DNA of 64,000 nucleotides, from contig JALVYU010000026.1 in assembly GCA_027022365.1 (NCBI GenBank), positions 256,001 through 320,000 of the forward strand, in the 5' to 3' direction. Origin of the DNA: Desulfurococcales archaeon (GTDB lineage Archaea; Thermoproteota; Thermoprotei_A; Sulfolobales; Desulfurococcaceae). The notes under the pieces are model-generated. The model was not told where the DNA came from, ran no database searches, and saw only the letters and a program-made list of their open reading frames with translations. Numbering within the stretch: position 1 is the stretch's first letter; each line of letters begins with the position of its first letter. Of this stretch, positions 334 through 18,889 are shown piece by piece. The translations under genes were made by a program, and so were the position numbers.

Positions 334-559
334 ATGTACCACCGGTCAACTCCTATTTTCATCCTAAATAAATACTTACTGAACTCTTAATGAACTTCAT
401 TTAGAATACTATAAAACTATGGAATAGTATTTCTTTTATATAATTTTTCATTAGTTATACATCATATTGTTAAACTCTATGAGAAGAACAGCTATAATCC
501 TATACACGTCATATTTTTTATAAGATTAAAGTGGTGATATAGTACTTGGTGTCTCGTAG

Positions 560-1612
560 TTGAAAATTCCTATAGGTAAGCTTATTATAAATCCCGAGAT
601 CGTTGCTAGAACTAAAATTGATGAGGAATACCTTAAGCTTTTAATGAAGAGTCTTAAGGAGGATGGCCAATTACATCCTATTACTGTGAGACCACTACCT
701 GATGGAAGATATGAAATTATTGATGGTCTTCACAGAGTGGAAGCTGCTAAAAGACTTGGCTGGAAGGACATTGAGGCCAACGTTGTATCAGTAGATGATC
801 TTGAAGCTAAGTTTCTATCACTTAAGGCTAATCTTGTTAGGAGGAACCTTGAGCCTGTTCAAGAGGGCGAACTGATATACCGTATAATGGTTAAACACAA
901 ACTTACTGAGAAGCAAGTAGCTGAAAGGCTCGGGGTATCTGTTGAATGGGTTTCAAAGAGACTAGCACTAGTACTTAAGGTACATGAAAAGGTTAGGAAG
1001 CTGGTAGCTGAAGGTAAGTTATCGTTAGGTCACGCTGTAGTTATATCGAGGATCAAGGATCCTACTAAACAAGTAAAGTTCGCTTACTTAATAATAAGAA
1101 ATAGTTGGAGCGTTAAACAAGCAGAGGAAGCACTCATAGAGTTCATAAACGATACCATATTCACGATAGGCTATGAAGGTAGGAGTTTTGAGGAGTTCGT
1201 AGACTTATTGAAGAAGCATGAGATCAAGGTTGTTATGGATATTAGGCATGAAGTAGACTTCGTTAAGCAGGAGTTCTCGGGAGAGCTACTAAAGAGGCAA
1301 CTCCCTGTCTATGGTATCAGATATATTCAGTTGAAGGAGCTTGGAGTACCTAGAATGATAAGAGAGCCATATATAGAGGGTAAACTTTCATTTGAATGCT
1401 TTAAGCAGTGGTATCTATGGTGGATTGAGAAGAATCGTGATGAATGGGAGAAGAAGCTAAGGGAAGCAAAGAGAATAGGGTACATTACTTTACTATGTGT
1501 CGAAAGATATCCTAAGCCACATGGAGCACAGAAACATTACTGTCATAGAGATATCCTTGCTGATTATCTAATAAGACAAGGCTTCTTCGAAAAAAGAGTT
1601 GATATTATATGA
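560..1612 (+). CDS. ParB/Spo0J-family protein (ParB N-domain + HTH) fused to C-terminal DUF488 domain
   Basis: SLKEDGQLHPITVR..YEIIDGLHRVEAA (ParB); LTEKQVAERLGVSVEWVSKRL (HTH); TIFTIGYEGRSFEEF..VVMDIR and LLCVE...CHRDILADYL (DUF488). Confidence 0.85.
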   Translation: MKIPIGKLIINPEIVARTKIDEEYLKLLMKSLKEDGQLHPITVRPLPDGRYEIIDGLHRVEAAKRLGWKDIEANVVSVDDLEAKFLSLKANLVRRNLEPVQEGELIYRIMVKHKLTEKQVAERLGVSVEWVSKRLALVLKVHEKVRKLVAEGKLSLGHAVVISRIKDPTKQVKFAYLIIRNSWSVKQAEEALIEFINDTIFTIGYEGRSFEEFVDLLKKHEIKVVMDIRHEVDFVKQEFSGELLKRQLPVYGIRYIQLKELGVPRMIREPYIEGKLSFECFKQWYLWWIEKNRDEWEKKLREAKRIGYITLLCVERYPKPHGAQKHYCHRDILADYLIRQGFFEKRVDII

Positions 1613-1899
1613 GGGAGGCTACAATGCTTGTAGGCGTTATATATCGAAGTAAAGAGGTAGAGATTCTAGGTATTGAGTTAGTTACATCTAGAGAACTATT
1701 TGGTCAAGCAATATACTGTCCTCTCTGCCGTAAAGAACTTAAGGGATGGAGTGAAGGATGTACAGTATTTCACTTATATTGTGATCACTGCGGTATTGCG
1801 ATAACAGTGGCTAACACCAATATTCTTGAAGATAAAGATCTTAGCGATCTAGAAGCTAAGCTCCTTTCTCTATTCGACGAAATAAGCTCTAGGTGGTAG
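1609..1899 (+). CDS. small zinc-finger protein
   Basis: CPLC...CDHC; overlaps both neighbours (translational coupling). Confidence 0.65.
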   Translation: MREATMLVGVIYRSKEVEILGIELVTSRELFGQAIYCPLCRKELKGWSEGCTVFHLYCDHCGIAITVANTNILEDKDLSDLEAKLLSLFDEISSRW

Positions 1900-2783
1900 A
1901 AATGGTTGTCGAGAGGATAATAGTTTTAGCGAAAACGTATCCAGAGCTTAGTTCAAAACATGGTCCACTAGTATGTGTTGCTGGAGTAAATGAGTATAAG
2001 GAGTGGCGTAGACTTTATCCTATACCGCTTAAGATATGGATAAACGAGAAGTATGAGGATATAAGATTCAGGAAATGGGATAAAATAGAAGTTGAAGTTA
2101 GTGAGAAACCGCCACCACATGATAGAAGATCTGAGAGTAGACGCGTGATTAACTGGAAGAACATAAGGGTTGTAGGCCATATAAAGGATTGGGAAACTAG
2201 GTTAGCCGTAATTAAAGAGCTACTTGATCCAGATATAGAATCGATCATTAATTCTGGTAGGAGTTTAGGTGTTATAAAACCTGCTAAAGTATTAGACTTC
2301 TTCAGTAAGCCTAGGCATAGGCTTAGAGATGAAGCTGAGAAAGAAGTTCTGAAGAAGATGGATGAAGCTGATAGCACGGTAACACTCCTAGAATATCTTG
2401 AGATAGGTGATAAGTACCTACTACCTGAGGTAAGGGAACCTGACGTTAAGGTAGAAGAACTTCCATGGATAGGCTACAAGTTTTACTGTGGTAATCCTCG
2501 ATGCAGAGGACATGAGATGATGGTTATTGACTGGGAAGCGCAGGAACTATTCCGCAAGTATAGGACTGTTGAAGGACCGGTAAAACAGAAGTTGTTCAAT
2601 GAGCTAGTGTTTAAGAGGGATCTCTACTTCATAGTAGGTAATACGTGGAAGTATCACAAATCCTTCATGATAATAGGCTTGTTCTACCCACCAAAAGGAA
2701 CAGTTCCAGTAAAGCCGCTCGTACCAATATTCAAGGATAAACCAAAGCAGAAGACTCTCTTCGATATCCTGCAACAAAGGTGA
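1893..2783 (+). CDS. conserved protein of the DUF488-associated (dual OB-fold-like) type
   Basis: LAKTYP..S..VCVAG...WRRLYPIP, FRKWD.IE, DRRSES, SLGVIKP, Y.FYC...C..H.M..IDWE, DLYFIVGN...SFMIIGLFYPP. Confidence 0.65.
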   Translation: MVEMVVERIIVLAKTYPELSSKHGPLVCVAGVNEYKEWRRLYPIPLKIWINEKYEDIRFRKWDKIEVEVSEKPPPHDRRSESRRVINWKNIRVVGHIKDWETRLAVIKELLDPDIESIINSGRSLGVIKPAKVLDFFSKPRHRLRDEAEKEVLKKMDEADSTVTLLEYLEIGDKYLLPEVREPDVKVEELPWIGYKFYCGNPRCRGHEMMVIDWEAQELFRKYRTVEGPVKQKLFNELVFKRDLYFIVGNTWKYHKSFMIIGLFYPPKGTVPVKPLVPIFKDKPKQKTLFDILQQR

Positions 2784-2795
2784 AAGGATGATAAT

Positions 2796-3317
2796 ATGCC
2801 TACAATGTTCGAAAACGAAGAACAAATGAAAGAACTGCTAATAAGATGGCTGAGAGACAACGGGTTCATAACAAGGAGAGGACTATATGTTAAGAATTTT
2901 GAAATAGATGTAGCTGCACTAGCCTCAGCGAGGATAACTAGAGAGGGAATAAGACTAGTCAGAGATAGATATGTGTACGCGTTCGAAACCAAGGTTGCTA
3001 CAACATATAAACTTATAAAAGAGGTTGTCGAACAAGCGATCATAAGGCTGTTAGCAGTAGACTATGTCTATATAGTTGTACCTAAAATAGCCGAGATTTG
3101 GAAAGATGGAACAACTAAGGACATTATAACGCCTCCTATCAATGTTAAGAAGATAGCTTCAGGAACATACTCTAAAAACATAGGAATCATAGCAATAGAG
3201 CCCAACGGAACAATCGAAATAACCAGAACAGCACGAAAATCTGGACTAACAATAAAAGAACTAAGAAATCTCGTCATAAGAGAGCTAAGAGGAGAAAACA
3301 TAAGACCATTATATTGA
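2796..3317 (+). CDS. PD-(D/E)XK restriction-endonuclease-fold protein
   Basis: E..MKELLIRWLRDNGF, FEIDVAA, AFETK, EQA...AVDYVYIVVP. Confidence 0.7.
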   Translation: MPTMFENEEQMKELLIRWLRDNGFITRRGLYVKNFEIDVAALASARITREGIRLVRDRYVYAFETKVATTYKLIKEVVEQAIIRLLAVDYVYIVVPKIAEIWKDGTTKDIITPPINVKKIASGTYSKNIGIIAIEPNGTIEITRTARKSGLTIKELRNLVIRELRGENIRPLY

Positions 3318-3771: not shown

Positions 3772-3826
3772 TTTACTCTTTAGACTTAAGAGTATAAACT
3801 TTATACTCTTAAGTCTAAAGAGTAAA
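3772..3826. repeat. perfect 27-bp inverted repeat with 1-nt spacer (55-bp palindrome)
   Basis: TTTACTCTTTAGACTTAAGAGTATAAA-C-TTTATACTCTTAAGTCTAAAGAGTAAA read directly. Confidence 0.95.
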
Positions 3827-3834
3827 ATATCACT

Positions 3835-6205
3835 GTGATCCATTGTTACGGTTTGATAATAGTCTGTTCCTATGTCTATACGGTCCTTCTATATAATTCG
3901 GTGTTGCTAATGGGCAGGATGTTATATGCTGTAATCTATATCGTCTTGATGATTTCTTCCAGCTTGTTATTTGTAGAAGCAACGCTCTTAACAGGGAGCT
4001 TATTATTTGCTGTTCCGTTAGCGGTTCTCAGTATGGCTTTACTGTTTGCGGATGTTATAATATGGTACAGATATATTCATCCCGTAGTCGTTAGGAATGT
4101 CGAGATGCTTATTGCCGTAGTATTTACATCTTTCATGCTCTTAATGATCCCGCTTCTTCTCGGATTCCTACATCTAGCCCCAGCTTTGGTGATGCAGGCT
4201 ACTCTCGCTTCCACGGGCCTTATAGATGGTTGGAGCCGTGTAAGGGGTTTAATCTCTAGGTCTAGGCGAACAGCTGTTAGGAGAATCCGGGAGAAGAAAG
4301 GCTGGAGCAGGTCTGTTCCCAGGGAGCTGGAGATATTTGTTTATATAGACTTGTTTACGGCAATGCTCTTCATACCATCTATACTTCTCGGGTTCTACCT
4401 CTTGGTAACGGGTGTTGACATACTTGTATCCAGCCTGGGCTTTGCCCTAGTCATGTATGGTTTAGCGGGGATGGGGTTTCATGTAGCTAACCTGCTGAAA
4501 CCCCCCGTGGAGGTTAGGATTCGTGTCTTGAGGAGGAAGTGGTATACTGCTTTCTTGGTCAGGCATCCGAGGATCTATTCTTTCGCTGAAAAGTACACGG
4601 GCTATATTAAGCGTCTCCTCGTTGAAGCCGGGGTGTTTCAGGGATCCCTCGTATTTGCTTCTAGGTATTTTGTCCCGGCTTTGTTAATGCTTGTTTCGCT
4701 GGGCCCGCTAGGTGTGGTTGCTCCTCTGCTACTGGGTAGGCTTGGTTTCATAGTCCTGGGTATAGTGTTTTCTGTTCCAGCGATCCTCCTATTGTTCCCC
4801 ATCATGTACTTGTCCTCGAGGAGGGGTGATAGGAGGCGTAGGGTTGAGGATGAGCTTCCCTGGTTCGCCCTATACGCTAGTATTATGCAGAGTGCTGGGT
4901 TGAGCCTATACGAGTCCTTTAAGAGGCTGATAGGTAAGGGGATCCTCCCGGCTATAGAGAGTGAAGCAACTATTATTGAGCGTAATGTTAAGATGCTCGG
5001 TATGGATCAGGTGAACGCTATTGAGGCTCTGGCTAGGCGTCATCCCTCTAGGAGGTTCAGCGAATTCCTATACTCGTACACAACCATATTGAGGACCGGT
5101 GGGGACCTGGTATCGTATCTTGAGGGCAGGGTTAGAGAGTACTTGGAGCTTCTCAAGTTCAGGCTTAAACGATATGCTGAGAGATCGGTTGATTTAGGCG
5201 AGATACTCATAACAATGTTCTTTATATTGACGAGCATTGTTGTTTCACTGGTTATTGCTGCCTGGGGATATAGCCCTTACAGCTATTAGGATGTATAACT
5301 ATCTCGCGATACCGCTGATCACGATCGTGCTTTACTCGGTAATTAATTCTATTCAGCCGAGGCTCTATGACAGGTATAGGGTCAGCCATGCTCTGCCAGC
5401 CATTACAACTCCTCTTGCAACCCTCATAGCCGTGGTCTCGGGCTGGGACCCGTCCTTGATCATTGCATCGTTCGTGATAGGGCTGGCTGGCGGTTATGGG
5501 TTCCAGTACTATATGCAGCAGAAAGTCATCTCTGCTCAGGAGAGGGCGTTGCAAGATTTTCTCCGGGATGTTGCCGAGTACCGGAAGATCGGGTTGCCGG
5601 TCTCTAGAGCTATTGTCTCTATTGCTGAGAGGAGGAGCTATAACTCGTTCTTCGATGACTTGCTCTCCTATATCGCTTTCCAGCTAAGGATGCATAAGAG
5701 GCTGGGAGAGGTAGTAGTGCCTACGAGCTCCCGGCTCGTCAGAACGGTGTTCTTCATATTGGGCGAGATAGAGGCTAGTGGTGGGGGTACGATTAGGGTT
5801 CTCGAGGAGCTTGTGAACTTTGTCCAGGAGTATAATATTGCGAAGAACGAGATGCGGGGAATGCTCCGCCTCTACGAGCTCCTAGCCTACACTACCCCGG
5901 TAATGCTGGTATTAACAGTTTCACTTGTAACAGGGCTCAGCACAGGATTCCAAGCCCCCGCGTCCTCGGCTTTCTCGAGCCTCCCAGGCTTCAGCCTCAG
6001 TATAGGGCGTTTCGACAAAGCAGTCCTAAGCAAAATAAGGACATCGACCCTGCTAGCCTCGATATCCCTAGCAGTCCTTACCAGCAAGACCATAGATTTC
6101 ACCGTGAAGAACACGCTCCGAGCAGTAATAGTCATAGTGATAACCATTGCCTCGTTCAGCTTCCTGCAACCATTAGCCGAGGAGATTATCAAGACGCTAG
6201 TCTAG
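3835..6205 (+). pseudogene. type IV pilus platform protein (TadC/FlaJ-like, two T2SSF domains) split by a frameshift into 3835..5289 and 5237..6205
   Basis: RRVEDELPWFA..S.MQSAGLSL...TILRTGGDL and ERALQDFLRDVAE..KIGLP...EASGGG in overlapping frames; shift near 5255-5270. Confidence 0.7.
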
Positions 6206-9043: not shown

Positions 9044-9772
9044 TCATTCTATCTCCCATATCTTCAACCCGCATCCTTCGTAAGTATTCTGTCCGGGGCA
9101 CCTCCTAATTCTCGGCTCTATGGTGAGGAATGCTTTTTCGAAATCAAAACTTTGCCATCTATACTGTTTCGTAACTATGTATCTAGTCAGATATGCCACA
9201 TAGTCGGCTATCTGGATCGCTGGTTCTAAGTGGGAGTAGGAGAAGGTGATGTATGTTCTATATGTTGGATTTGCGAGTGCTTCTTCTATACCCTTCTCGA
9301 TATCATGTCTAATATTTGCATCTTCGCGTAGATTCTTTGAATCAAATATGATGAGCGCTATGTTTTCATCTGCTCTAGTCATATATAGTCTCTCGACAAG
9401 GAGTTTTAATGCATGTTTTCTTATACCTCGGGCCCTCTTCTTCGAAATCTCTACTCCTGGTCTTGATTTAACAACAGCTACAATATTTAGTACTATGTCA
9501 AGCCTTGAAACGAGTTCGGCGATTTCTTGAAATATCCTTGCCCTATCCCGCATGGGGAGTCTCCACGGAGAATTCCCCTTAACCAGATGCTTGGTATGGA
9601 CCTCATTAACCCGGATACCATATTGATTATTAATATGTGAGAGGAAACGCGAGAAACTACTATCAACTACACCAAGTTTATCCTCACAGACGGCGACAGA
9701 TGACAAAATATATGGGCCTTCATCGAGCTGAAGAGGATCACCCGACTCGTCAACAAATATTAATAGCGTCAA
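9044..9772 (-). CDS. DUF3800 family RNase H-like protein
   Basis: IFVDESGD, EVHTK, LIIFD, SHLEPAIQIADYVAY. Confidence 0.85.
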   Translation of the reverse strand: MTLLIFVDESGDPLQLDEGPYILSSVAVCEDKLGVVDSSFSRFLSHINNQYGIRVNEVHTKHLVKGNSPWRLPMRDRARIFQEIAELVSRLDIVLNIVAVVKSRPGVEISKKRARGIRKHALKLLVERLYMTRADENIALIIFDSKNLREDANIRHDIEKGIEEALANPTYRTYITFSYSHLEPAIQIADYVAYLTRYIVTKQYRWQSFDFEKAFLTIEPRIRRCPGQNTYEGCGLKIWEIE

Positions 9773-9952
9773 CAGTCACCTACCCTGTGCTCCTTGTACA
9801 TACACTAAGCTATTTCGGATATATTTAACATCCACGTATGATATAAGCTTAAACCGTTTAGTAAAGAAATCTATCTCATAGATCTGCTTTCACAGTTCAT
9901 CAATGATATGTTCCTATGTGTTTGCTTCACTGTTTTTATCGGTGCATACTAT

Positions 9953-11104
9953 ATGAGGGGCCAGGCGGCTGTTATTGGTGTTGCCTTGTTCTTCATAGCC
10001 ATGATCATAATGGGGGCCGTGTTCCTCAGCCTAGTCTCCAAGACTGTGAAGCTGTTCATAGCCGAGGAAATGTCGCTAAAGTACCTGGAAAGAAGGGCCC
10101 AGGAGAGCTTAAAGATTGTATGGGGCTGGGATATGGTGTCGGCTACAGAGGGGTATCCCAAGCTTATCATAAATAATACTGGGTCAGTGCCGATACATAT
10201 TGTCCAGGTTAGGCTCAGTATAAGGGAGAAGGATCCAGACAGGCTCTCGTGGTCCAAGATAGTCCAGGGACCATGGATCATAGCCGAGGATAGGGATCTC
10301 CCTGTAGGAGGCTCACTAGTAATAAAGGCTAACCAGAAACTTAACAGGACACAAATAGAGTACTGGTACAAGAACAACATGACAAGAATACTAGAAGCAA
10401 GAATAGTGACAAGATACGGAAACGTATTCAGAACTGTATATGTCCCGAGACCTCCGAAGTCAGGTCTAAAACCGGGATACAACACGATATTATTCTACTG
10501 GTCTGCTCATGACTGGATGGATATAGAGAATAATGACTGGTGGCATGGAGACAGGCTGGGCTACTATAAGATGACTGCTCCGGATGGTGCTTGGAGCATT
10601 GACGGGGGCAATATCGAGATCCCCGAATGGACTACGGTCTCCTCGAAGACCATTAGCTTTGAGTTCATGGTTTATCTGCCGGGCACGGATAGTGACGGAT
10701 ATGTTTTGGGCAGTAAGAACTATCTCGTCCTGGCCGTAGAGTTTATTGATAAGGGCACGGGGCCCGCCTATCCCGCGACGGTCTACTATTCATGGTCCCT
10801 GATAATTACCGGTCTCGATGGTAGTAGCGTATACAGTGTCTCTACGGGAGAGATAGAAGACACAATATCTGTTCCTGACGGGGTTCCCCACACGGCGTGC
10901 TTCAAGCTGGAACCAGGCAACCCCAAGTTCATAGTATTCGACGACATCCATGTAGAGAAGTCTCTCGACAAAACACCTAAGAATATCGAGCCAGGCTGGT
11001 ACATCGTAGAGCTGAAAATAAGGCTCAGAGCAGAGGCCGGGGGATCCGCTACACTTGGCCTTAAAAGCGTATTCCTATACATAAGCAACAAGAATTTATG
11101 GTAA
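9953..11104 (+). CDS. large pilin/adhesin-like protein with class III signal peptide
   Basis: MRG/QAAVIGVALFFIAMII; INNTGSVPIHIVQV; IVTRYGNVF; start refined from 9908. Confidence 0.65.
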   Translation: MRGQAAVIGVALFFIAMIIMGAVFLSLVSKTVKLFIAEEMSLKYLERRAQESLKIVWGWDMVSATEGYPKLIINNTGSVPIHIVQVRLSIREKDPDRLSWSKIVQGPWIIAEDRDLPVGGSLVIKANQKLNRTQIEYWYKNNMTRILEARIVTRYGNVFRTVYVPRPPKSGLKPGYNTILFYWSAHDWMDIENNDWWHGDRLGYYKMTAPDGAWSIDGGNIEIPEWTTVSSKTISFEFMVYLPGTDSDGYVLGSKNYLVLAVEFIDKGTGPAYPATVYYSWSLIITGLDGSSVYSVSTGEIEDTISVPDGVPHTACFKLEPGNPKFIVFDDIHVEKSLDKTPKNIEPGWYIVELKIRLRAEAGGSATLGLKSVFLYISNKNLW

Positions 11105-11107
11105 TTT

Positions 11108-12025
11108 TTACCAGAGGGGTCTTCCTATATCATATAGTTTTTTATAATATGGTGCAATTATATTCTCCACCTCAGAACATGGGTAGGGTTTAATTGGGAA
11201 TTCTGGCTCATAGCCTGCTGACAGTTCTGCCAGGTAGAATATGTGGTTTTTCCATGTGAAGTTAAAGCATCCTTTCAATCTAGGAGGGGGATTATCAATG
11301 GCTATTGCCACGTATGCGTGATCAGCTGGGAAACCATTTGCTGGGCAGGCTTTAGCTGTTATATAAGCCACCCATAAACCAGCGTCAGCCGCTAGCTCGA
11401 TAGCTAAGCCAGATTTAGTCATACAGTTTCCCTCGTCATATACTATTTCAAGAAGTGCATCGTATGATCGTGGTTCCCACTTGTAATGGATCTGTGAGGC
11501 TATACTTAATATCATTAGGGCTAGTCTGTACTCAGTGTAGTTTGACGGGTATTCTTCAACGTATTTTCTTAGTGTAGTAGCTATTGCCTTTATGATTGGT
11601 TCTGAACCCCATTCCGGCATGTTGTTAAGGTGTAGTTCTATTACGAATTCTGGAATAATTATTTCTAAGACAACATATCTATGAATTATGTCATCGTAAA
11701 AGTAGAACTTTCTAGTAATTGTTGAGGAGTTTGCATGGTCTATAATGCTTAGTAATTGCAATAAGTTGTATTTCCCTGTTACTAGCTTTCCCTCTCTAAC
11801 CATTCTATCAGAGTACAGTATGTAGTCTCGGTATATCCTTTTCCATTCTTCAATTGTTTTATTAACAACGAGTATTATTCTATTGTTCTGTGTTGTTGTG
11901 GTTTGGTTTTCTTCTTGTTCTCTCTGTTTCAGTTCTGCAACTATGTTTGTATACATTACGTGTACGAGGAGTATGAGCACTATGACGATTAATGCCGTAG
12001 CGGCCGCTTTATGTATTGTTCTCAT
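11108..12025 (-). CDS. membrane-anchored transglutaminase-like (Cys-His-acid) protein
   Basis: N-terminal TM; GNCMTKS, DHAYVAI, YLAELS. Confidence 0.65.
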   Translation of the reverse strand: MRTIHKAAATALIVIVLILLVHVMYTNIVAELKQREQEENQTTTTQNNRIILVVNKTIEEWKRIYRDYILYSDRMVREGKLVTGKYNLLQLLSIIDHANSSTITRKFYFYDDIIHRYVVLEIIIPEFVIELHLNNMPEWGSEPIIKAIATTLRKYVEEYPSNYTEYRLALMILSIASQIHYKWEPRSYDALLEIVYDEGNCMTKSGLAIELAADAGLWVAYITAKACPANGFPADHAYVAIAIDNPPPRLKGCFNFTWKNHIFYLAELSAGYEPEFPIKPYPCSEVENIIAPYYKKLYDIGRPLW

Positions 12026-12350
12026 CTTCCCCCTCCTTGAAAGGCTCTATTATTATCTTGTCGCCGTCCCCGCGTATTTTTACCAGTTCATACTTATCCA
12101 GGCCGGTTTTCTCTGCTAGTTCCCAGGGTATGTTTACCCTGTACTGTCCCCGCCCTTTGGTCGGCTTCACGACGTAGTAGTCTATACGCTTGACCACCAG
12201 CTTATCGTCCTGGACCGTTACCAGGACCCGCTCTCCTTCTTTGAAGGGGGCTTTATCCTCACCAATATACAGTCTCAGCTTCCCCCTCCCCACATCCACT
12301 ACCCTGACCGGGCCCATGCCCCGTCTAAGCACAATCTTATCACTGGTCAT
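12009..12350 (-). CDS. tandem AbrB-like DNA-binding protein
   Basis: GQYRVNIPWELAEKTGL...DGDKIIIEP; start refined to ATG 12350; overlaps transglutaminase gene. Confidence 0.6.
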   Translation of the reverse strand: MTSDKIVLRRGMGPVRVVDVGRGKLRLYIGEDKAPFKEGERVLVTVQDDKLVVKRIDYYVVKPTKGRGQYRVNIPWELAEKTGLDKYELVKIRGDGDKIIIEPFKEGEDENNT

Positions 12351-12362
12351 CAACACTATTTC

Positions 12363-13551
12363 CAAGGAGCCCGGCTTCAGGTATATCGACGCCTTCTTCC
12401 CCGACAAGTGTAGATATGATAACATCTACCTCGCCACTTTTAGCCTTCTTAACAAGTTTTAGTCGCTCTTCCTTCTTCGTATCACTTGTTAAAACGGCTA
12501 CTTCATCGTCAGAGAACCCCATGTGGTTAACAATTGTTCTTTGGAATTCCTTAGCAGTAGCTTTACGAGATGTATATACCAGTACTGGCTTCAGGTTATC
12601 ATTTTCTTTAATACCATAGACCGTTAAAATATCAATTAATATTCGAGCTTTATGCGAGGGTTCACTCGAGTTGTATAGTTCGTCGAGGTCTCTATGGGGT
12701 ATTATCTTGTTTCTTTCGATGGCTCTCCTGTAGCTTTCACGGAATGCTTCCTTACCGTATCTTGATAGTGTTGACTCGAGGAACTTAATTATCTTGGGAT
12801 CTCCACTAGGTAGTGCTCTGAATAGGGCATTGTAGACCTTGTTTTCGAGATCGCTCATTTCTGCATCGAACAGGTCTGCTATGGCTTTTGGAGGCTTGAA
12901 GTTAGGGTCCATTTCTTCTAATCTCCTGAAATCATACGATAAGAGATGAGGATCACCGGTCACTTCTACAACTCCAAGGTCTAGCCGGTACCTCTTATAA
13001 CTGGGTAGTAGAGCCGTAAAACCAATTATAATATCCGGCTTGAGCTCCGTGAGTAGTTCCATGTAGTATTTCCCGCCAAAAAGCATGGTGTACCTCATCA
13101 ATTATTATCATTCTGAAGTCTTCCTTGAGAATAGATGTACATTTGAGGGCCGTCTGTGGTGTTGATATAACAATTCTTTTGCCAAGTTCAAGAAAGCTAT
13201 TACAGTTTCCCTCATATTCTTTACCGACGAGATCCCCGAATACTCTACTCCATAAGCCACATTCCCTTCCTCTCCCATACATTTGGTCACAGAGAAATCT
13301 GGTAGGCTCAATACAAGTATACGAGGGATACCATGTTGGAGACCGTAAAATGCCGTAAACATCTCGAGTAATGTTTTACCGCTACCAGTAGGCATAGAGA
13401 CTATAATAAACCTTGAACCTCTTTCTATAGCTCCAATAACTTCATTAGCAACATGTTCCTGATACTTTCTAAGCTTAAAACCAAGTATATTATAAACACG
13501 ATCATTGAAAGAGCCGAGTAAACTGCTCATATCCAAGGCCTTACGATACAT
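12363..13551 (-). pseudogene. SF2 DEAD/DEAH helicase, two frameshifts and 3' truncation
   Basis: MPTGSGKT, VL(E)PTRFL, IIIDEVHHA, GFTA, STLVGEEGVDIP spread over three frames; motif VI absent. Confidence 0.8.
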
Positions 13552-13596
13552 GATAACATGACATAATAATCCGAAGAAGAATTATTTTTAATTTAT

Positions 13597-13780
13597 TTTT
13601 TTAATATTTCCGGGTACTTCTTAATGACTGCTAGGAGCTTCCTTAATTTTTCTTCAGTTTCCTTTTTCTCTTATTTCCAGTTCCAATGTTGCTTGTTGGT
13701 GTAGTGGATAGGCACATCTCCAGCAGTAATTGGCTTTCTTAGGGTTGGTTGCTCCGAATTCCTGACATATTATGATTGTA
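13597..13780 (-). pseudogene. probable C-terminal zinc-ribbon remnant of an archaeal tyrosine integrase
   Basis: manual translation ICQEFGATNPKKANYCWRCAYPLHQQATLELEI then (other frame) ETEEKLRKLLAVIKKYPEIL. Confidence 0.45.
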
Positions 13781-14257
13781 TTGTGTATTGTATTGATGTT
13801 TTTCTCTTATTCGTCTGCCCCTTTTAAGTACAAGTGAATGGTTAATAGACCGATTACATTTGTGTCGTCAGCATATCGTAAGAGTCTTTCAATAACAGCG
13901 ACTTTATAGTATCCTCGCTAACATATAATTGAACCACTGCTGTGGCCCCGCAGAAGTTGCTTCTCTATGTATTTAAAGAAGAGACTCGAACGCAAAAGTG
14001 AGGGCTCCCTGGCGGAACCATATATTTTAGTTCGGGTTTCCAATCTCTTACATTCTTCTATACCTCCATTTAGCCTCTTGTTATGATTTCAGTAAAGCAT
14101 GTTGAGCCCTTGTCTTGGTAATGCGTTTGTTCCGATCATTATAGCTTTTATAAACCTCTTATCAGTCCACTAGAGACAATAAGAGTAGTACCTAACATAC
14201 AATATAATATTCTATTCAATGAAGATCATAAAATAACTTAGTAAAAAAGCAATGAGC

Positions 14258-15658
14258 TTATCTACTAATCATGGATATTTCTATAGCTGAGGCATCGACT
14301 AGCGAGTTATACCCGATACAGAATACCTTGTCTACTATCATTGGCAACGCGTTGTACAATAGCCCGGTAGTTACGGACATTTCTAATTCTAGAAGTGAAC
14401 CGTCATTGCTGTATGTGAGGTTTATTAGTCCTAGATTTATCCCTATAACGTAGCAGTTGTCTCGTATTTTAACGCCATAAATTATATGTTTGACTATTAT
14501 CTCACCATTAATAGTTTTGTATATATGTTCATGTTTTCCAACGATGACTATTGTCATTAGCTCCTTATGATGATTAGCTCTTGAAAACATATTTGTTTTC
14601 ACATCATACATTATCAGTGTTTTGTTCTCTGGAACTATTTTACGATATGTCAAGAACGGGGGTAGATTCATGATTCTTATATTCTCCCCACAGATGGGGC
14701 AAGAGCCGATGTTTTGGTAGGGAGAAATTATTTTCTCTATTAGGATTAGTCCGCCTCTATGTACAATAGTCCCATTTCTTAATATCATAATTGGTTTAGC
14801 TATATATTCATCACCGCATTTTTCAACGTATATTAGGTTTGCTAACGAGTATGTCTTATTATCTATTTTCATTATGGTTTTGGGGAGTACATTGTATAAT
14901 ATTAGAGTTTCGTTACTATACATGCTCCTATTTGTTAGATGGAAAATCCACTCTCCAATGAATCTACCATGGCTATCAACTACTGATCCCGTCTGCATAT
15001 TAACATGTACGGTTCTAGTAATGTTTAGATAGTTGAAGACCGCGATATGAAACCCATCTTTAATTATCCAGCTAGAGTCTATCCGTGGAAGCGGCTTGTA
15101 TTTCTCACCGCACACAGCTATCCCTTTCTCGAAAACGAGCGTTATGTTAATCTTCGCTTTACTGTTATGCTGTATAACTACATACATTCTTTCCGATAAT
15201 ATTCTACATGATATCTTATTTAATAGGTTGCTTATGCTTTCTAGATCATTATGCTGGCACATAATAGCTCTGTAATCCTTATAACTATTGTATAATACAA
15301 CATAATATCTTGGATAAAATGAACCGTTGATTAATCCTTTCCCATATTTATTGATTATCTCATTAGCAATGCTTCTGAATATGTATAAATGTATCGTATC
15401 ATTAATATCACCCAAGGTTCTGACCTGATATAGCGTTTCTACCGGCTTTACAACAACGTCATGTGAGGCACTGGTAGTATTTATTGAGCTAGGCGAACTA
15501 AATTGATTAATGGATGGGGGGACGTTATATATCGTACCGCTAAGTACAAGTAATAGAATTAATATAGCGGTTGCGGCACCAGCTAGAACATATGTGGAAG
15601 TTTTACTTCCAACCATATATATCGCCTTCATACAGTTATGTGAAGCATGTTCCAGCAA
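14258..15658 (-). CDS. hypothetical membrane-anchored/secreted protein
   Basis: long AT-rich ORF with N-terminal TM helix. Confidence 0.6.
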   Translation of the reverse strand: MLEHASHNCMKAIYMVGSKTSTYVLAGAATAILILLLVLSGTIYNVPPSINQFSSPSSINTTSASHDVVVKPVETLYQVRTLGDINDTIHLYIFRSIANEIINKYGKGLINGSFYPRYYVVLYNSYKDYRAIMCQHNDLESISNLLNKISCRILSERMYVVIQHNSKAKINITLVFEKGIAVCGEKYKPLPRIDSSWIIKDGFHIAVFNYLNITRTVHVNMQTGSVVDSHGRFIGEWIFHLTNRSMYSNETLILYNVLPKTIMKIDNKTYSLANLIYVEKCGDEYIAKPIMILRNGTIVHRGGLILIEKIISPYQNIGSCPICGENIRIMNLPPFLTYRKIVPENKTLIMYDVKTNMFSRANHHKELMTIVIVGKHEHIYKTINGEIIVKHIIYGVKIRDNCYVIGINLGLINLTYSNDGSLLELEMSVTTGLLYNALPMIVDKVFCIGYNSLVDASAIEISMISR

Positions 15659-16130
15659 GAGATGCTGCTACAGAAGGTTCAACACTACCGCACATATTCT
15701 GGACAACTGAGGTGTACATTATATTGCCAGCGGGATGATAGCTGGCAGATACTGTGCTCCCATCGAGCCAGAGGACTAGAGTTGTATGGTTATATATTCC
15801 TAGAGATATATCATAGTATCCTATTTGAACTAATGCGTAGCTATCAGCAACACAGCACGCGCCCCCTAGTAAGGCATCGCCTGTAGCGGTTCCTACACCA
15901 TAAGAATCTAAATCATTTGAACCAGTTATCTGAGCACTTACTTCGATAGAATCACAGTTACTGCTGGCCTGATTAGTGCAGTAAGGATCCCCGACACTAG
16001 TATTGATTTTACTCGCATTGTTAGCGTGAGTGATGAAAGGAATACTATATAGCCCTACGTATCCAGCCATAATCACTATAAATAAAAGCGGCATCATAAG
16101 CGTTAGAGCAATAAGCGAACGTTTCTCCAT
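15636..16130 (-). CDS. hypothetical secreted Cys-containing protein
   Basis: signal-like N-terminus, six Cys. Confidence 0.55.
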   Translation of the reverse strand: MEKRSLIALTLMMPLLFIVIMAGYVGLYSIPFITHANNASKINTSVGDPYCTNQASSNCDSIEVSAQITGSNDLDSYGVGTATGDALLGGACCVADSYALVQIGYYDISLGIYNHTTLVLWLDGSTVSASYHPAGNIMYTSVVQNMCGSVEPSVAASLAGTCFT

Positions 16131-16571
16131 ATGTTTATCGCCTGATATTTTCCTAAATTAATAAATAACTTATATTTTTTCTTTCATAGAATGATTTTTC
16201 CTTTGGAAAAAGGCTTTAATACGGCTTGATGGTTGAAGAGAAAAGCGTCATGGTATCGAAGTTTCTAATACCTCAGATGATGATCTTGAAAACACTATAG
16301 CTACAGGAAGGATCTAGTTGTATAATTGTTGGGCAGTTTTTAGTGTGGTTTTTAATGTTAGCTGATAAACGACTTGGAACTAGTGTTCGTTAAATATCCG
16401 GCTTGTATATGTTCTTTCCCATGCGTATTTCATAAGTTTTACAGAAATGATTATCAATGTGTTTTTATAGGTGTCTATGCACCATAATTGTGCGTTAGGT
16501 GATATGAGGGATGTGTTTTAACTAGTGGGTCTGAAACACGTGTTCTTCACCCCAAGTCCTTATCCGTATAC

Positions 16572-17834
16572 ATGTCTAGGCGGTCTCTCCTCAAAGATCT
16601 AGGGAGAGACGAAGAAGCCATTATTGTGGCATGGATAGCTGACAAGCACGAAGACAAGATCGTTCTTAGAGATGCTAGTGGCTACAGGGAATTTAGAGTT
16701 AAGGGCTCGAAGGATCTCTCTGAACTGCCGCTTGAGACACTCGTAGTTATCGAAGGGGAGATTAGAGATGATATCCTATTTGTCAAGAAGGTTATACCCC
16801 TGACATTACCGCGCAGGGAAAGAGGCTTCGACTACACAAGTGTAACGCGGGACACCGACCCTGTTGCCGCGGCCAAGTATTCACCATGGGTTCTCCGCAG
16901 CAAGCTACTGCAGTCCGTAGTGAGGCTTCAGCAATATATCCTGGAGTATGTCCGCGAATTCCTTTACCGGGAGGGGTTCACAGAGCTACTGCCCCCGATA
17001 GCCAGCGTTGTCAGTGATCCTGGCCTTAGGGGTGCTAGGAAGCTTAGGACGAGCCTATATGGCGTCGAGTATGAGTTGACGAGCAGTGTTATAATGTATA
17101 AACAATCCTCCGCGGCAGTGTTTGAGAAGATATTTTACGTTGCGAGAAACATTAGGGAGGAGCCTCCCGAGAACATAGGGACTGGGAGGCACTTGGTGGA
17201 GTTCACGCAGATAGATCTGGAGTGGGCGCTGGCTAGCGTGGATGATGTGATAAGGCTTGCAGAGAGACTCTTAGAATACGTCTCGGAGAAGCTTGCGAGA
17301 GAGAAGAGCTGGTTGTATGGGGAGCTCGGCGTGGAGCCGTACGTGTTTAAGCCTCCCTTCCCAAGACTAACATACGATGAGGCACTAGAGGTTGCGAAGA
17401 GGCTCGGATACAGTGTTGAGTGGGGTAAGGAGCTGAGCCATGAGGCTGAGACAGCGATAGCGATGGAATACGATTCGCCAGTGTGGATCACAGGGTTCCC
17501 GGTCGTGAGCCGGGGCTTCTACTACCTCCCTGACCCAGACAGCCCACGGTATAACAGGGACTTCAACCTAATACTGCCTAGAGGCTATGGCGAGGTAATA
17601 GATGGGGGAGAACGTGAGTACAGGTACGAGGAACTCGTCAAAAGGATAAAGGCTGTCGGCGAGCCGCTGGAGAAGTATGAGTGGTTCCTCGACCTCGCAA
17701 GGGCGGGAGGTATCCCTCCCAGTGCTGGCTGGGGCCTAGGACTGGAGAGGCTGACAAGGTTCTTGGCGGGACTAAAGCACGTGGGGTTAGCAACGCCATT
17801 CCCGAAGCTACCAGGCGTGGCCGGAACTCCGTGA
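16572..17834 (+). CDS. asnA: asparagine synthetase A (AsnRS-like, class IIb paralog)
   Basis: SDPG, LTSSVIMYKQ, NIREE..TGRHLVEFTQIDLE, EVIDGGERE, PSAGWGLGLERL, PFPKLPG. Confidence 0.75.
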   Translation: MSRRSLLKDLGRDEEAIIVAWIADKHEDKIVLRDASGYREFRVKGSKDLSELPLETLVVIEGEIRDDILFVKKVIPLTLPRRERGFDYTSVTRDTDPVAAAKYSPWVLRSKLLQSVVRLQQYILEYVREFLYREGFTELLPPIASVVSDPGLRGARKLRTSLYGVEYELTSSVIMYKQSSAAVFEKIFYVARNIREEPPENIGTGRHLVEFTQIDLEWALASVDDVIRLAERLLEYVSEKLAREKSWLYGELGVEPYVFKPPFPRLTYDEALEVAKRLGYSVEWGKELSHEAETAIAMEYDSPVWITGFPVVSRGFYYLPDPDSPRYNRDFNLILPRGYGEVIDGGEREYRYEELVKRIKAVGEPLEKYEWFLDLARAGGIPPSAGWGLGLERLTRFLAGLKHVGLATPFPKLPGVAGTP

Positions 17835-18786: not shown

Positions 18787-18792
18787 TGATAG

Positions 18793-18889
<97 letters not shown>

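Follow-up and report, generated by a model that had tools for sequence, protein, structure and literature searches.

The subject of this analysis is a cassette of genes at positions 560-3317 of a 64,000-nucleotide (nt) stretch of DNA (the window) from a Desulfurococcales archaeon, taken from positions 256,001 to 320,000 of the forward strand of contig JALVYU010000026.1 (GenBank assembly GCA_027022365.1). Four genes lie there on the plus strand: g1 (560-1612; 350 amino acids, aa), which encodes a fusion of a ParB module with a DUF488 domain; g2 (1609-1899; 96 aa), for a putative zinc-ribbon protein; g3 (1893-2783; 296 aa), for a predicted tandem oligonucleotide-binding (OB)-fold protein of the DuOB type; and g4 (2796-3317; 173 aa), for a predicted PD-(D/E)XK nuclease. 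Upstream of g1, at the left edge of the window, a gene for an AbrB/SpoVT-fold protein is transcribed in the opposite direction. The cassette is a thermophilic-archaeal variant of the DUF488 and DuOB pair that the PADLOC collection lists as the untested phage defence candidate PDC-M19, extended by a nuclease and a regulator.

The four co-oriented genes are intact and AT-rich, as an earlier sequence-only reading of this DNA had described them; both their open reading frame (ORF) coordinates and their base composition agree with that account, the GC fraction being 0.38-0.41 across the operon region (501-3000), compared with 0.46-0.52 at 4001-6000 and 0.47-0.54 in the upstream genes (10200-13800 of locus L007, which reaches to the left of the window). 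The AT-rich stretch around the cassette is ~8 kb long, beginning just after a T2SSE ATPase gene and ending just before a T2SSF gene. Direct inspection of the sequence shows that g1 and g2 have an ATGA in common and that g2 ends with a TAG at 1897-1899, and 12 nt separate g3 from g4, the spacing that had been given for this junction. Of the two stop/start overlaps claimed earlier, the one between g1 and g2 stands, whereas that between g2 and g3 (7 nt) exists only if g3 starts at the GTG at 1893; an ATG at 1902, which would leave a gap of 2 nt, is the more likely start because the database form of this protein (P0001) has 293 aa. The cassette genes can be regarded as real because g3 has many database relatives and because many loci preserve the synteny of g1, g3 and g4.

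The assignment of g1 as a ParB-DUF488 protein is borne out by Pfam, which places a ParB_N domain at residues 3-92 (E = 1.1e-13), a helix-turn-helix (HTH) domain of the HTH_ParB family at 96-192 (1.8e-19) and DUF488 at 210-337 (7.9e-17), all above the Pfam cut-offs. The DUF488 match (PF04343) scores 62.4 bits against a gathering cut-off of 22.2, the protein passes TIGR00180 (106.5 bits; cut-off 58.45), and its residues 185-341 match the PADLOC model for PDC-M19A (PDLC04505) at 3.9e-20. This is the sole DUF488 gene of the genome. Among 15 full-length ParB-DUF488 sequences, the ParB box residues G56, R59, N91 and R94 are invariant, as are C313, E315, H326, C328, H329 and R330 of the DUF488 part, whose C-x-E and C-H-R motifs are presumably catalytic. 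By sequence, the DUF488 part has no relative in the PDB (the best E-value, 0.64, is spurious). Burroughs and Aravind are said to have defined the DUF488 clade and DuOB in 2023, to have placed DUF488 in a superfamily of phosphatase/rhodanese type for which the processing of nucleic-acid ends is predicted, and to have predicted a role in DNA-end processing in conflict systems.

Like the DNA clamps ParB, Noc and KorB, which depend on cytidine triphosphate (CTP), g1 combines ParB_N with HTH_ParB and keeps the GxxR and N..R box residues; unlike them, it has no C-terminal dimerisation domain, and an enzyme domain, DUF488, is fused in that place at its C-terminus. It also differs from the ParB/Spo0J proteins of ParABS systems in that no ParA partner gene is found near it: scans of 25 neighbouring ORFs here and of 66 ORFs flanking related loci revealed none, and the annotations next to the copies on the plasmids pSOG1, pSOG2 and pBEU9E1 include none either. 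A survey of the ParB-CTPase fold reports in vitro CTP binding by an archaeal 'DUF488-HTH' fusion of ParB (PMC12704722), and g1 may, by analogy, bind CTP as well.

The g3 gene begins 281 nt downstream of g1, with g2 between them. Residues 4-269 of its product match the PADLOC model for PDC-M19B (PDLC04508) at 2.4e-41, the protein matches phrog_25907 at 4e-34, and 248 database relatives were found at E<=1e-3 among 1240 candidates. The g3 protein itself has no Pfam match at E<=0.1; one relative, P0100 (32% identical), matches the Pfam family DuOB (PF22557, 'Dual OB-containing domain') with 34.6 bits against a cut-off of 27, and another, P0053, scores 18.7 bits against the same cut-off. The description of g3 as OB-like, made in the earlier reading, thus agrees with its DuOB relative and also with comparisons of a structure model (predicted local distance difference test, pLDDT, 86). 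In Foldseek, the top matches of this model are RPA70 (4gop_C, probability 0.99; 1jmc_A) and HIN-200 (4jbm_B, 0.97), and VIA-align returns nearly only OB-fold nucleic-acid binders, mainly single-stranded DNA-binding proteins (SSB), RPA, Stn1 and Teb1, although with a best Z of only 5.8. By the VIA-align matches (Z <= 5.8), a first OB fold would span residues 1-~107 and a second ~109-281, and two zinc-bearing domains, RPA70 DBD-C and Teb1 OB-C, align to the second. What separates g3 from RPA70 and HIN-200 is the modest level of these scores (VIA Z <= 5.8, template modelling score <= 0.37) and the presence of invariant motifs of its own, R79-x-E81-S82 and H207...D213-W-E215...R221. In addition, C28, C199 and C204 are nearly invariant and H207 is invariant, a cluster that suggests a zinc site formed by these four residues. 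The model and these matches together describe a tandem-OB, DuOB-type protein with predicted DNA-binding activity.

The product of g2 matches zinc-ribbon Pfam models weakly and phrog_16376 at 1.6e-05. Its cysteine pattern, CPxC...C...CxxC, is kept in 7 homologues, and the conservation of the CxxC...CxxC arrangement agrees with its earlier description as a zinc finger. Judged by these motifs, g2 is a small zinc-ribbon protein and an optional member of the cassette, found at 10 of the 20 g1-g3 junctions in the close clade of loci defined below.

No match to g4 was found in Pfam, PADLOC, NCBIfam or PHROGs. Its structure model (pLDDT 93) contains an alpha-beta-beta-beta-alpha-beta core (H8-21, E25-32, E35-48, E51-65, H71-84, E90-96), and the top VIA-align match of this model is SPO1766 (3dnx; Z 13.2, root-mean-square deviation 2.8, 126 aligned residues), followed by the PaqCI nuclease (Z 11.9), the FdxN-element excision factor 2okf (9.7) and NucS (9.5); Foldseek agrees. 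Eight residues are invariant in 23 sequences (E8, E36, D38, E64, K66, E79, Q80 and R84), and they include the catalytic signature of the fold, in which D38 opens strand 2 and E64-x-K66 closes strand 3. The fold matches and the D...E-x-K signature, both of which g4 has in common with the PD-(D/E)XK nucleases SPO1766, PaqCI, 2okf and NucS/EndoMS, thus uphold the earlier call of a PD-(D/E)XK nuclease. On the other hand, g4 is less than 22% identical to any of these proteins and matches no Pfam or NCBIfam family, and a profile search of 1.84 billion cluster representatives returned 22 matches (E<=1e-3). On the strength of the modelled fold, g4 is a predicted nuclease of a tiny, unnamed PD-(D/E)XK family, and we propose it as the effector of the cassette.

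To place the cassette among its relatives, loci were retrieved with g3 or a g3 alignment (3 from genomes, 80 from metagenomes and 13 from viruses), ORFs adjacent to DuOB genes were classed by Pfam scan with DUF488 accepted at E<=1e-5, and copies from the cassette's own genome, as well as L025 (on the same contig as L002), were left out of the linkage counts. The close clade comprises the 24 loci in which g3 is at least 50% identical. Within it, g1 is present in all 20 loci that have more than 125 nt of upstream sequence and an intact g3, and g4 is present in 22 of 24 loci, lying downstream of g3 in 22 of the 23 that have downstream sequence; of the two without g4, L021 ends at g3, and L029 truly lacks it despite 6 kb of sequence downstream. 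The joint occurrence of the genes, which the sequence-only reading had named as a check, is therefore strong for g1, g3 and g4 in the close clade and extends to g2 at half of the junctions. Near-identical copies of the cassette occur in independent vent metagenomes of other studies. A remnant, consisting of the last 97 residues of g3 and a fragment of g4, lies between housekeeping-type genes at 5386-6066 of L003.

Across the wider set, 65 of the 72 complete ORFs that adjoin DuOB genes carry DUF488. Of the other seven, five encode ParB_N-ASCH proteins (in L005, L031, L034, L036 and L064), four of which also give an HTH_ParB match, another encodes a truncated ParB, and the last matches nothing. 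The DUF488 partner takes several forms: a ParB-HTH fusion, a 286-aa protein with an N-terminal part of unknown nature, a stand-alone protein of 139-186 aa encoded downstream of DuOB, and a fusion to HTH_59. Because the DuOB genes of five loci are paired with ParB_N-ASCH, the ParB module can exchange its enzyme or reader head, DUF488 giving way to ASCH.

The divergent AbrB-fold ORF, which the earlier reading had not counted with the cassette, occupies positions 1-342 of the window on the minus strand, its 3' end lying beyond the window edge; in full it spans 17956-18342 of L007, encodes 127-128 aa and matches the Pfam family MazE_antitoxin (PF04014) at 5.7e-07 / 6.4e-07. The protein shares 57% identity with its divergent counterpart in L001. 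Of the 15 loci with at least 500 nt of upstream sequence, 12 have a gene of this family on the opposite strand at a distance of 115-221 nt upstream of g1; here the distance is ~217 nt. Because this divergent gene is conserved, the cassette can be counted as having five genes, of which the AbrB-fold protein is probably the operon regulator. The intervening promoter region (343-559) is AT-rich and carries a TTTTTATA-type box ~35 nt before the g1 start; when the promoter regions of 11 loci were aligned, only this T/A-rich box and the start region proved to be conserved. A second AbrB-fold ORF in the window (12009-12425) was considered as a close paralogue of the regulator and rejected, as the two are not closely related. 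In four other loci the ParB fusion is immediately preceded by a small ORF that runs in the same direction (L031 342-797, L033 410-820, L036 521-919 and L035 767-1159). Judged by eye, the four small proteins have a common C-terminal domain, and those of L031, L033 and L036 begin with an AbrB-like motif, in place of which that of L035 has a CxxC...CxxC zinc ribbon. They possibly form a regulator family that parallels the divergent AbrB-fold gene.

The MazE_antitoxin match, together with the presence of a nuclease on a mobile cassette, raises the idea of a toxin-antitoxin or addiction module in which the nuclease is the toxin and the AbrB/MazE-fold protein, or another protein of the cassette, is the antitoxin. 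We regard this as highly improbable: the AbrB-fold gene is divergent and some 217 nt away from g1 rather than co-transcribed with a toxin, Sulfolobus-type copies have a MarR gene at its position, the core that is conserved across bacteria and archaea is DUF488 plus DuOB without a nuclease, and scans of the cassette proteins and the neighbouring ORFs revealed neither MazF nor any other family of toxins.

PDC-M19 belongs to a set of 145 'guilt-by-embedding' candidates that Payne et al. describe as untested and that were chosen for their location within BREX, DISARM and type I restriction-modification (R-M) systems (bioRxiv 10.1101/2024.01.29.577857). Its A (DUF488) and B components are matched by g1 and g3, and the genes are adjacent and co-oriented, as are 65 of the 72 adjoining ORFs surveyed. 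The cassette differs from it in that DUF488 is fused to a complete ParB_N and HTH, a zinc-ribbon gene stands between A and B, and both a PD-(D/E)XK nuclease, for which PADLOC has no model, and a divergent AbrB-fold regulator are added. The earlier statement that the locus is not a named system consequently fails for its core, which matches PDC-M19, includes a protein of DuOB type (DuOB being a Pfam family) and resembles the archaeal fusion with CTP-binding activity. A match to a described system had been named in advance as a refutation, and as PDC-M19 is a catalogued but untested candidate, the earlier claim is refuted in part. As far as was checked, what this locus newly contributes is a PD-(D/E)XK family linked to the pair, a regulator of AbrB fold, the optional presence of g2 and an arrangement of five genes among thermophilic archaea. 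Another comparison is offered by the type IV restriction enzymes GmrSD, BrxU and SspE, single polypeptides that join DUF262 to DUF1524 (HNH-type), and so a ParB-fold NTPase to a nuclease. Like them, the cassette pairs a nuclease with a nucleotide-binding module of ParB fold, and does so in a setting of genetic conflict, but it has a canonical ParB with HTH, a separate PD-(D/E)XK protein, DUF488 and DuOB, and Pfam and PADLOC scans of the cassette proteins gave no match of the GmrSD/BrxU/SspE type.

Relatives of the cassette are found on chromosomes and on mobile elements alike. The g1-g3-g4 trio is present on pSOG1 and pBEU9E1, conjugative-type plasmids of Sulfolobus-group archaea (on pSOG1 the identities to the cassette are 52% for g1, 57% for g3 and 39% for g4), and g3 relatives occur on 22 plasmid records, 10 of them typed as conjugative, and on 13 viral contigs. 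The g3 gene is sparsely distributed: of 401 genomes sampled from the phylum, 3 have it (its own genome counted). The plasmid and viral copies might be expected of a module with which these elements maintain themselves or process their DNA, serving segregation-like positioning, replication intermediates or the processing of conjugative DNA. The ParB protein would then bind the DNA of the element itself, DuOB would be its SSB, and the trimming of ends would fall to DUF488 and the nuclease. The annotation of g1 as a partition protein on pSOG1 and pBEU9E1, the position of the present island amid VirB4/TraG-like, T2SSE and T2SSF genes, and the statement, in an account of Sulfolobus conjugative plasmids, that these plasmids have no identified relaxase (PMC4390865), all speak for such a role. 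Nevertheless, we consider it unlikely. A ParA-type gene was absent from all of the neighbourhoods described above; pSOG2 has no ParB-DUF488 gene, yet the same text describes both pSOG1 and pSOG2 as capable of conjugative transfer, and the cassette genes do not appear among the ORFs common to Sulfolobus conjugative plasmids in the passages of its Table 1 (PMC4390865). Moreover, many copies are chromosomal and adjoin R-M or Abi genes, and the bacterial pair was catalogued from its embedding in defence systems (bioRxiv 10.1101/2024.01.29.577857). Among the individual neighbourhoods, L010 adjoins an N6 methylase gene, L015 an archaeal integrase and an Eco57I-type methylase, and L022 AbiEi/AbiEii and a serine resolvase, while L029 lies near an integrase fragment.

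Viral and plasmid copies also bring into consideration a counter-defence or DNA-repair module of mobile elements, in which DUF488 would strip an adduct or end modification inflicted by the host and DuOB would be its DNA-binding partner. In keeping with this, the pair is found on phage or viral contigs and plasmids, and DUF488 is replaced by ASCH in some loci; ParB-ASCH fusions are mentioned, and ASCH is described as an RNA-binding domain, in the ParB-CTPase fold survey (PMC12704722). Evidence from seven Gordonia phage records points the other way, as their DuOB gene, a relative of g3 that lies three genes from the integrase, stands beside an 'immunity repressor'. A position beside the immunity repressor is usual for prophage genes that exclude other phages. 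The strictly linked nuclease g4 likewise suits attack better than repair, and the cassette adjoins R-M and AbiE genes, so that a counter-defence role appears quite unlikely to us, even with the end-processing activity that is reportedly predicted for the DUF488 superfamily. In one of these phages, Eviarto (L105, 3018-4822), the DuOB gene gp43 follows gp44, the 'immunity repressor', which has an N-terminal HTH and no detectable DUF488.

The reading that we favour is that the cassette is an anti-mobile-element system, a function to which we assign about an even chance. In its favour stand the domains, motifs and modelled folds described above; the linkage of the core pair, of g4 and of the regulator; the sparse occurrence of g3; the R-M, AbiE, integrase and resolvase genes beside related copies; the plasmid-borne trio; the phage DuOB gene next to the immunity repressor; the embedding by which the PDC set was defined; the CTP binding of the archaeal fusion; and the low-GC stretch that separates T2SSE from T2SSF here. 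In such a system, the DuOB protein would recognise single strands or ends exposed in the DNA of an invading virus or plasmid, and the ParB module would close, in a CTP-dependent manner, on the DNA so recognised. The clamp could then bring the DUF488 active site (C-x-E...H-x-C-H-R) to a DNA end or adduct, the PD-(D/E)XK protein g4 would cleave the marked DNA, and the AbrB-fold protein would keep the operon repressed. The earlier idea of a sensor and a nuclease directed at invading or modified DNA is likewise an inference, and none of the observations bears on the abasic DNA that it also named. In its most specific form, which we put forward tentatively and consider rather improbable, this would be an archaeal CTP-switch immune system, in which a ParB clamp from the segregation machinery has been repurposed for foreign DNA, is guided by the zinc-bearing double-OB protein, brings DUF488 to mark or trim ends chemically and licenses the PD-(D/E)XK nuclease. 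The replacement of DUF488 by ASCH would make ParB-HTH-X plus DuOB a modular DNA-surveillance family. A complex prediction for g1 residues 196-350, g3 and g4, with g4 as partner, gave 0.18 and 0.01 against a mark of 0.32 and was used neither way.

Several observations weigh against a defence function of this kind. The presence of the pair on 13 viral contigs and 22 plasmid records fits functions encoded by the elements for purposes other than defence equally well. Most DUF488-DuOB loci have no g4-type nuclease, so the nuclease is not part of the general mechanism of the pair. The ParB part lacks the C-terminal dimerisation domain of canonical clamps, and no parS-like palindrome is conserved in the promoter regions of the 11 aligned loci. 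As for the island, its edges show no convincing direct (att) repeats, no integrase was found among the island ORFs or the flanking ORFs scanned, and the two further ORFs of the island, of 767 and 368 aa, have no match in Pfam, PADLOC or PHROGs. Finally, the literature searched yielded no functional study of DUF488 and no experiment on the DUF488-DuOB pair.

Both DUF488 and DuOB occur widely, and recognition of the ParB-CTPase fold beyond chromosome segregation is recent. The nuclease of the present cassette, as an obvious effector, and its regulator give the candidate pair a readable output. In addition, the presence of the trio on pSOG1 and pBEU9E1, whose hosts are culturable and can be engineered, makes the function of the pair, the substrate of DUF488 and the role of CTP directly testable. 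If the defence reading is true, the cassette would represent a form of immunity in archaea that relies on a CTP switch.

The island and its surroundings have further features. Pilus or transfer-type genes flank it on both sides (VirB4/TraG-like ATPase, T2SSE and T2SSF-type membrane genes, at 10499-13925 of L007 and 3835-6205 of the window). Of five related loci, two have T2SSF less than 1 kb after T2SSE. Five other genomes sampled from the same genus contain no close orthologue of the T2SSE protein, whose best match (48% identical) comes from other genera, and the surrounding pilus or transfer locus may itself be accessory. To the left of the window, the island contains the ORF of 767 aa (L007 14022-16328, minus strand), for which the ESM Atlas gave no usable match, and that of 368 aa (16464-17570, plus strand). 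Contigs of four DNA runs were compared with the 10-kb stretch around the island in search of an empty site, and none joins across the island. In one run, X3, a single contig of 8,131 nt corresponds to 568-8698 of L101 (about -4430 to 3698 in window numbering), with a word depth of 33 compared with 117-205 in the flanks; the contrast could mean that only some members of the population carry the island or that other strains share its flanks, contig depth being an unreliable measure. A perfect palindrome of 49 nt (24-nt arms and one central base), unique in the genome, lies at 3775-3823, 12 nt upstream of the start of the T2SSF ORF (3835) and ~80 nt downstream of the X3 contig break (~3698).

Farther along the window, positions 9044-16130 resemble a second accessory stretch, with a DUF3800 protein (a weak match to the PADLOC model DUF3800_VII), several orphan ORFs, the AbrB-fold ORF at 12009-12425 and a split helicase. 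The last of these bears on the earlier claim that neighbouring genes are frameshifted, which was checked in part: the helicase is divided, on the minus strand, into a ResIII ORF (13108-13551) and a Helicase_C ORF (12340-13101). Beyond this stretch follow an aminoacyl-tRNA synthetase gene and a tRNA-Val gene (18792-18887).

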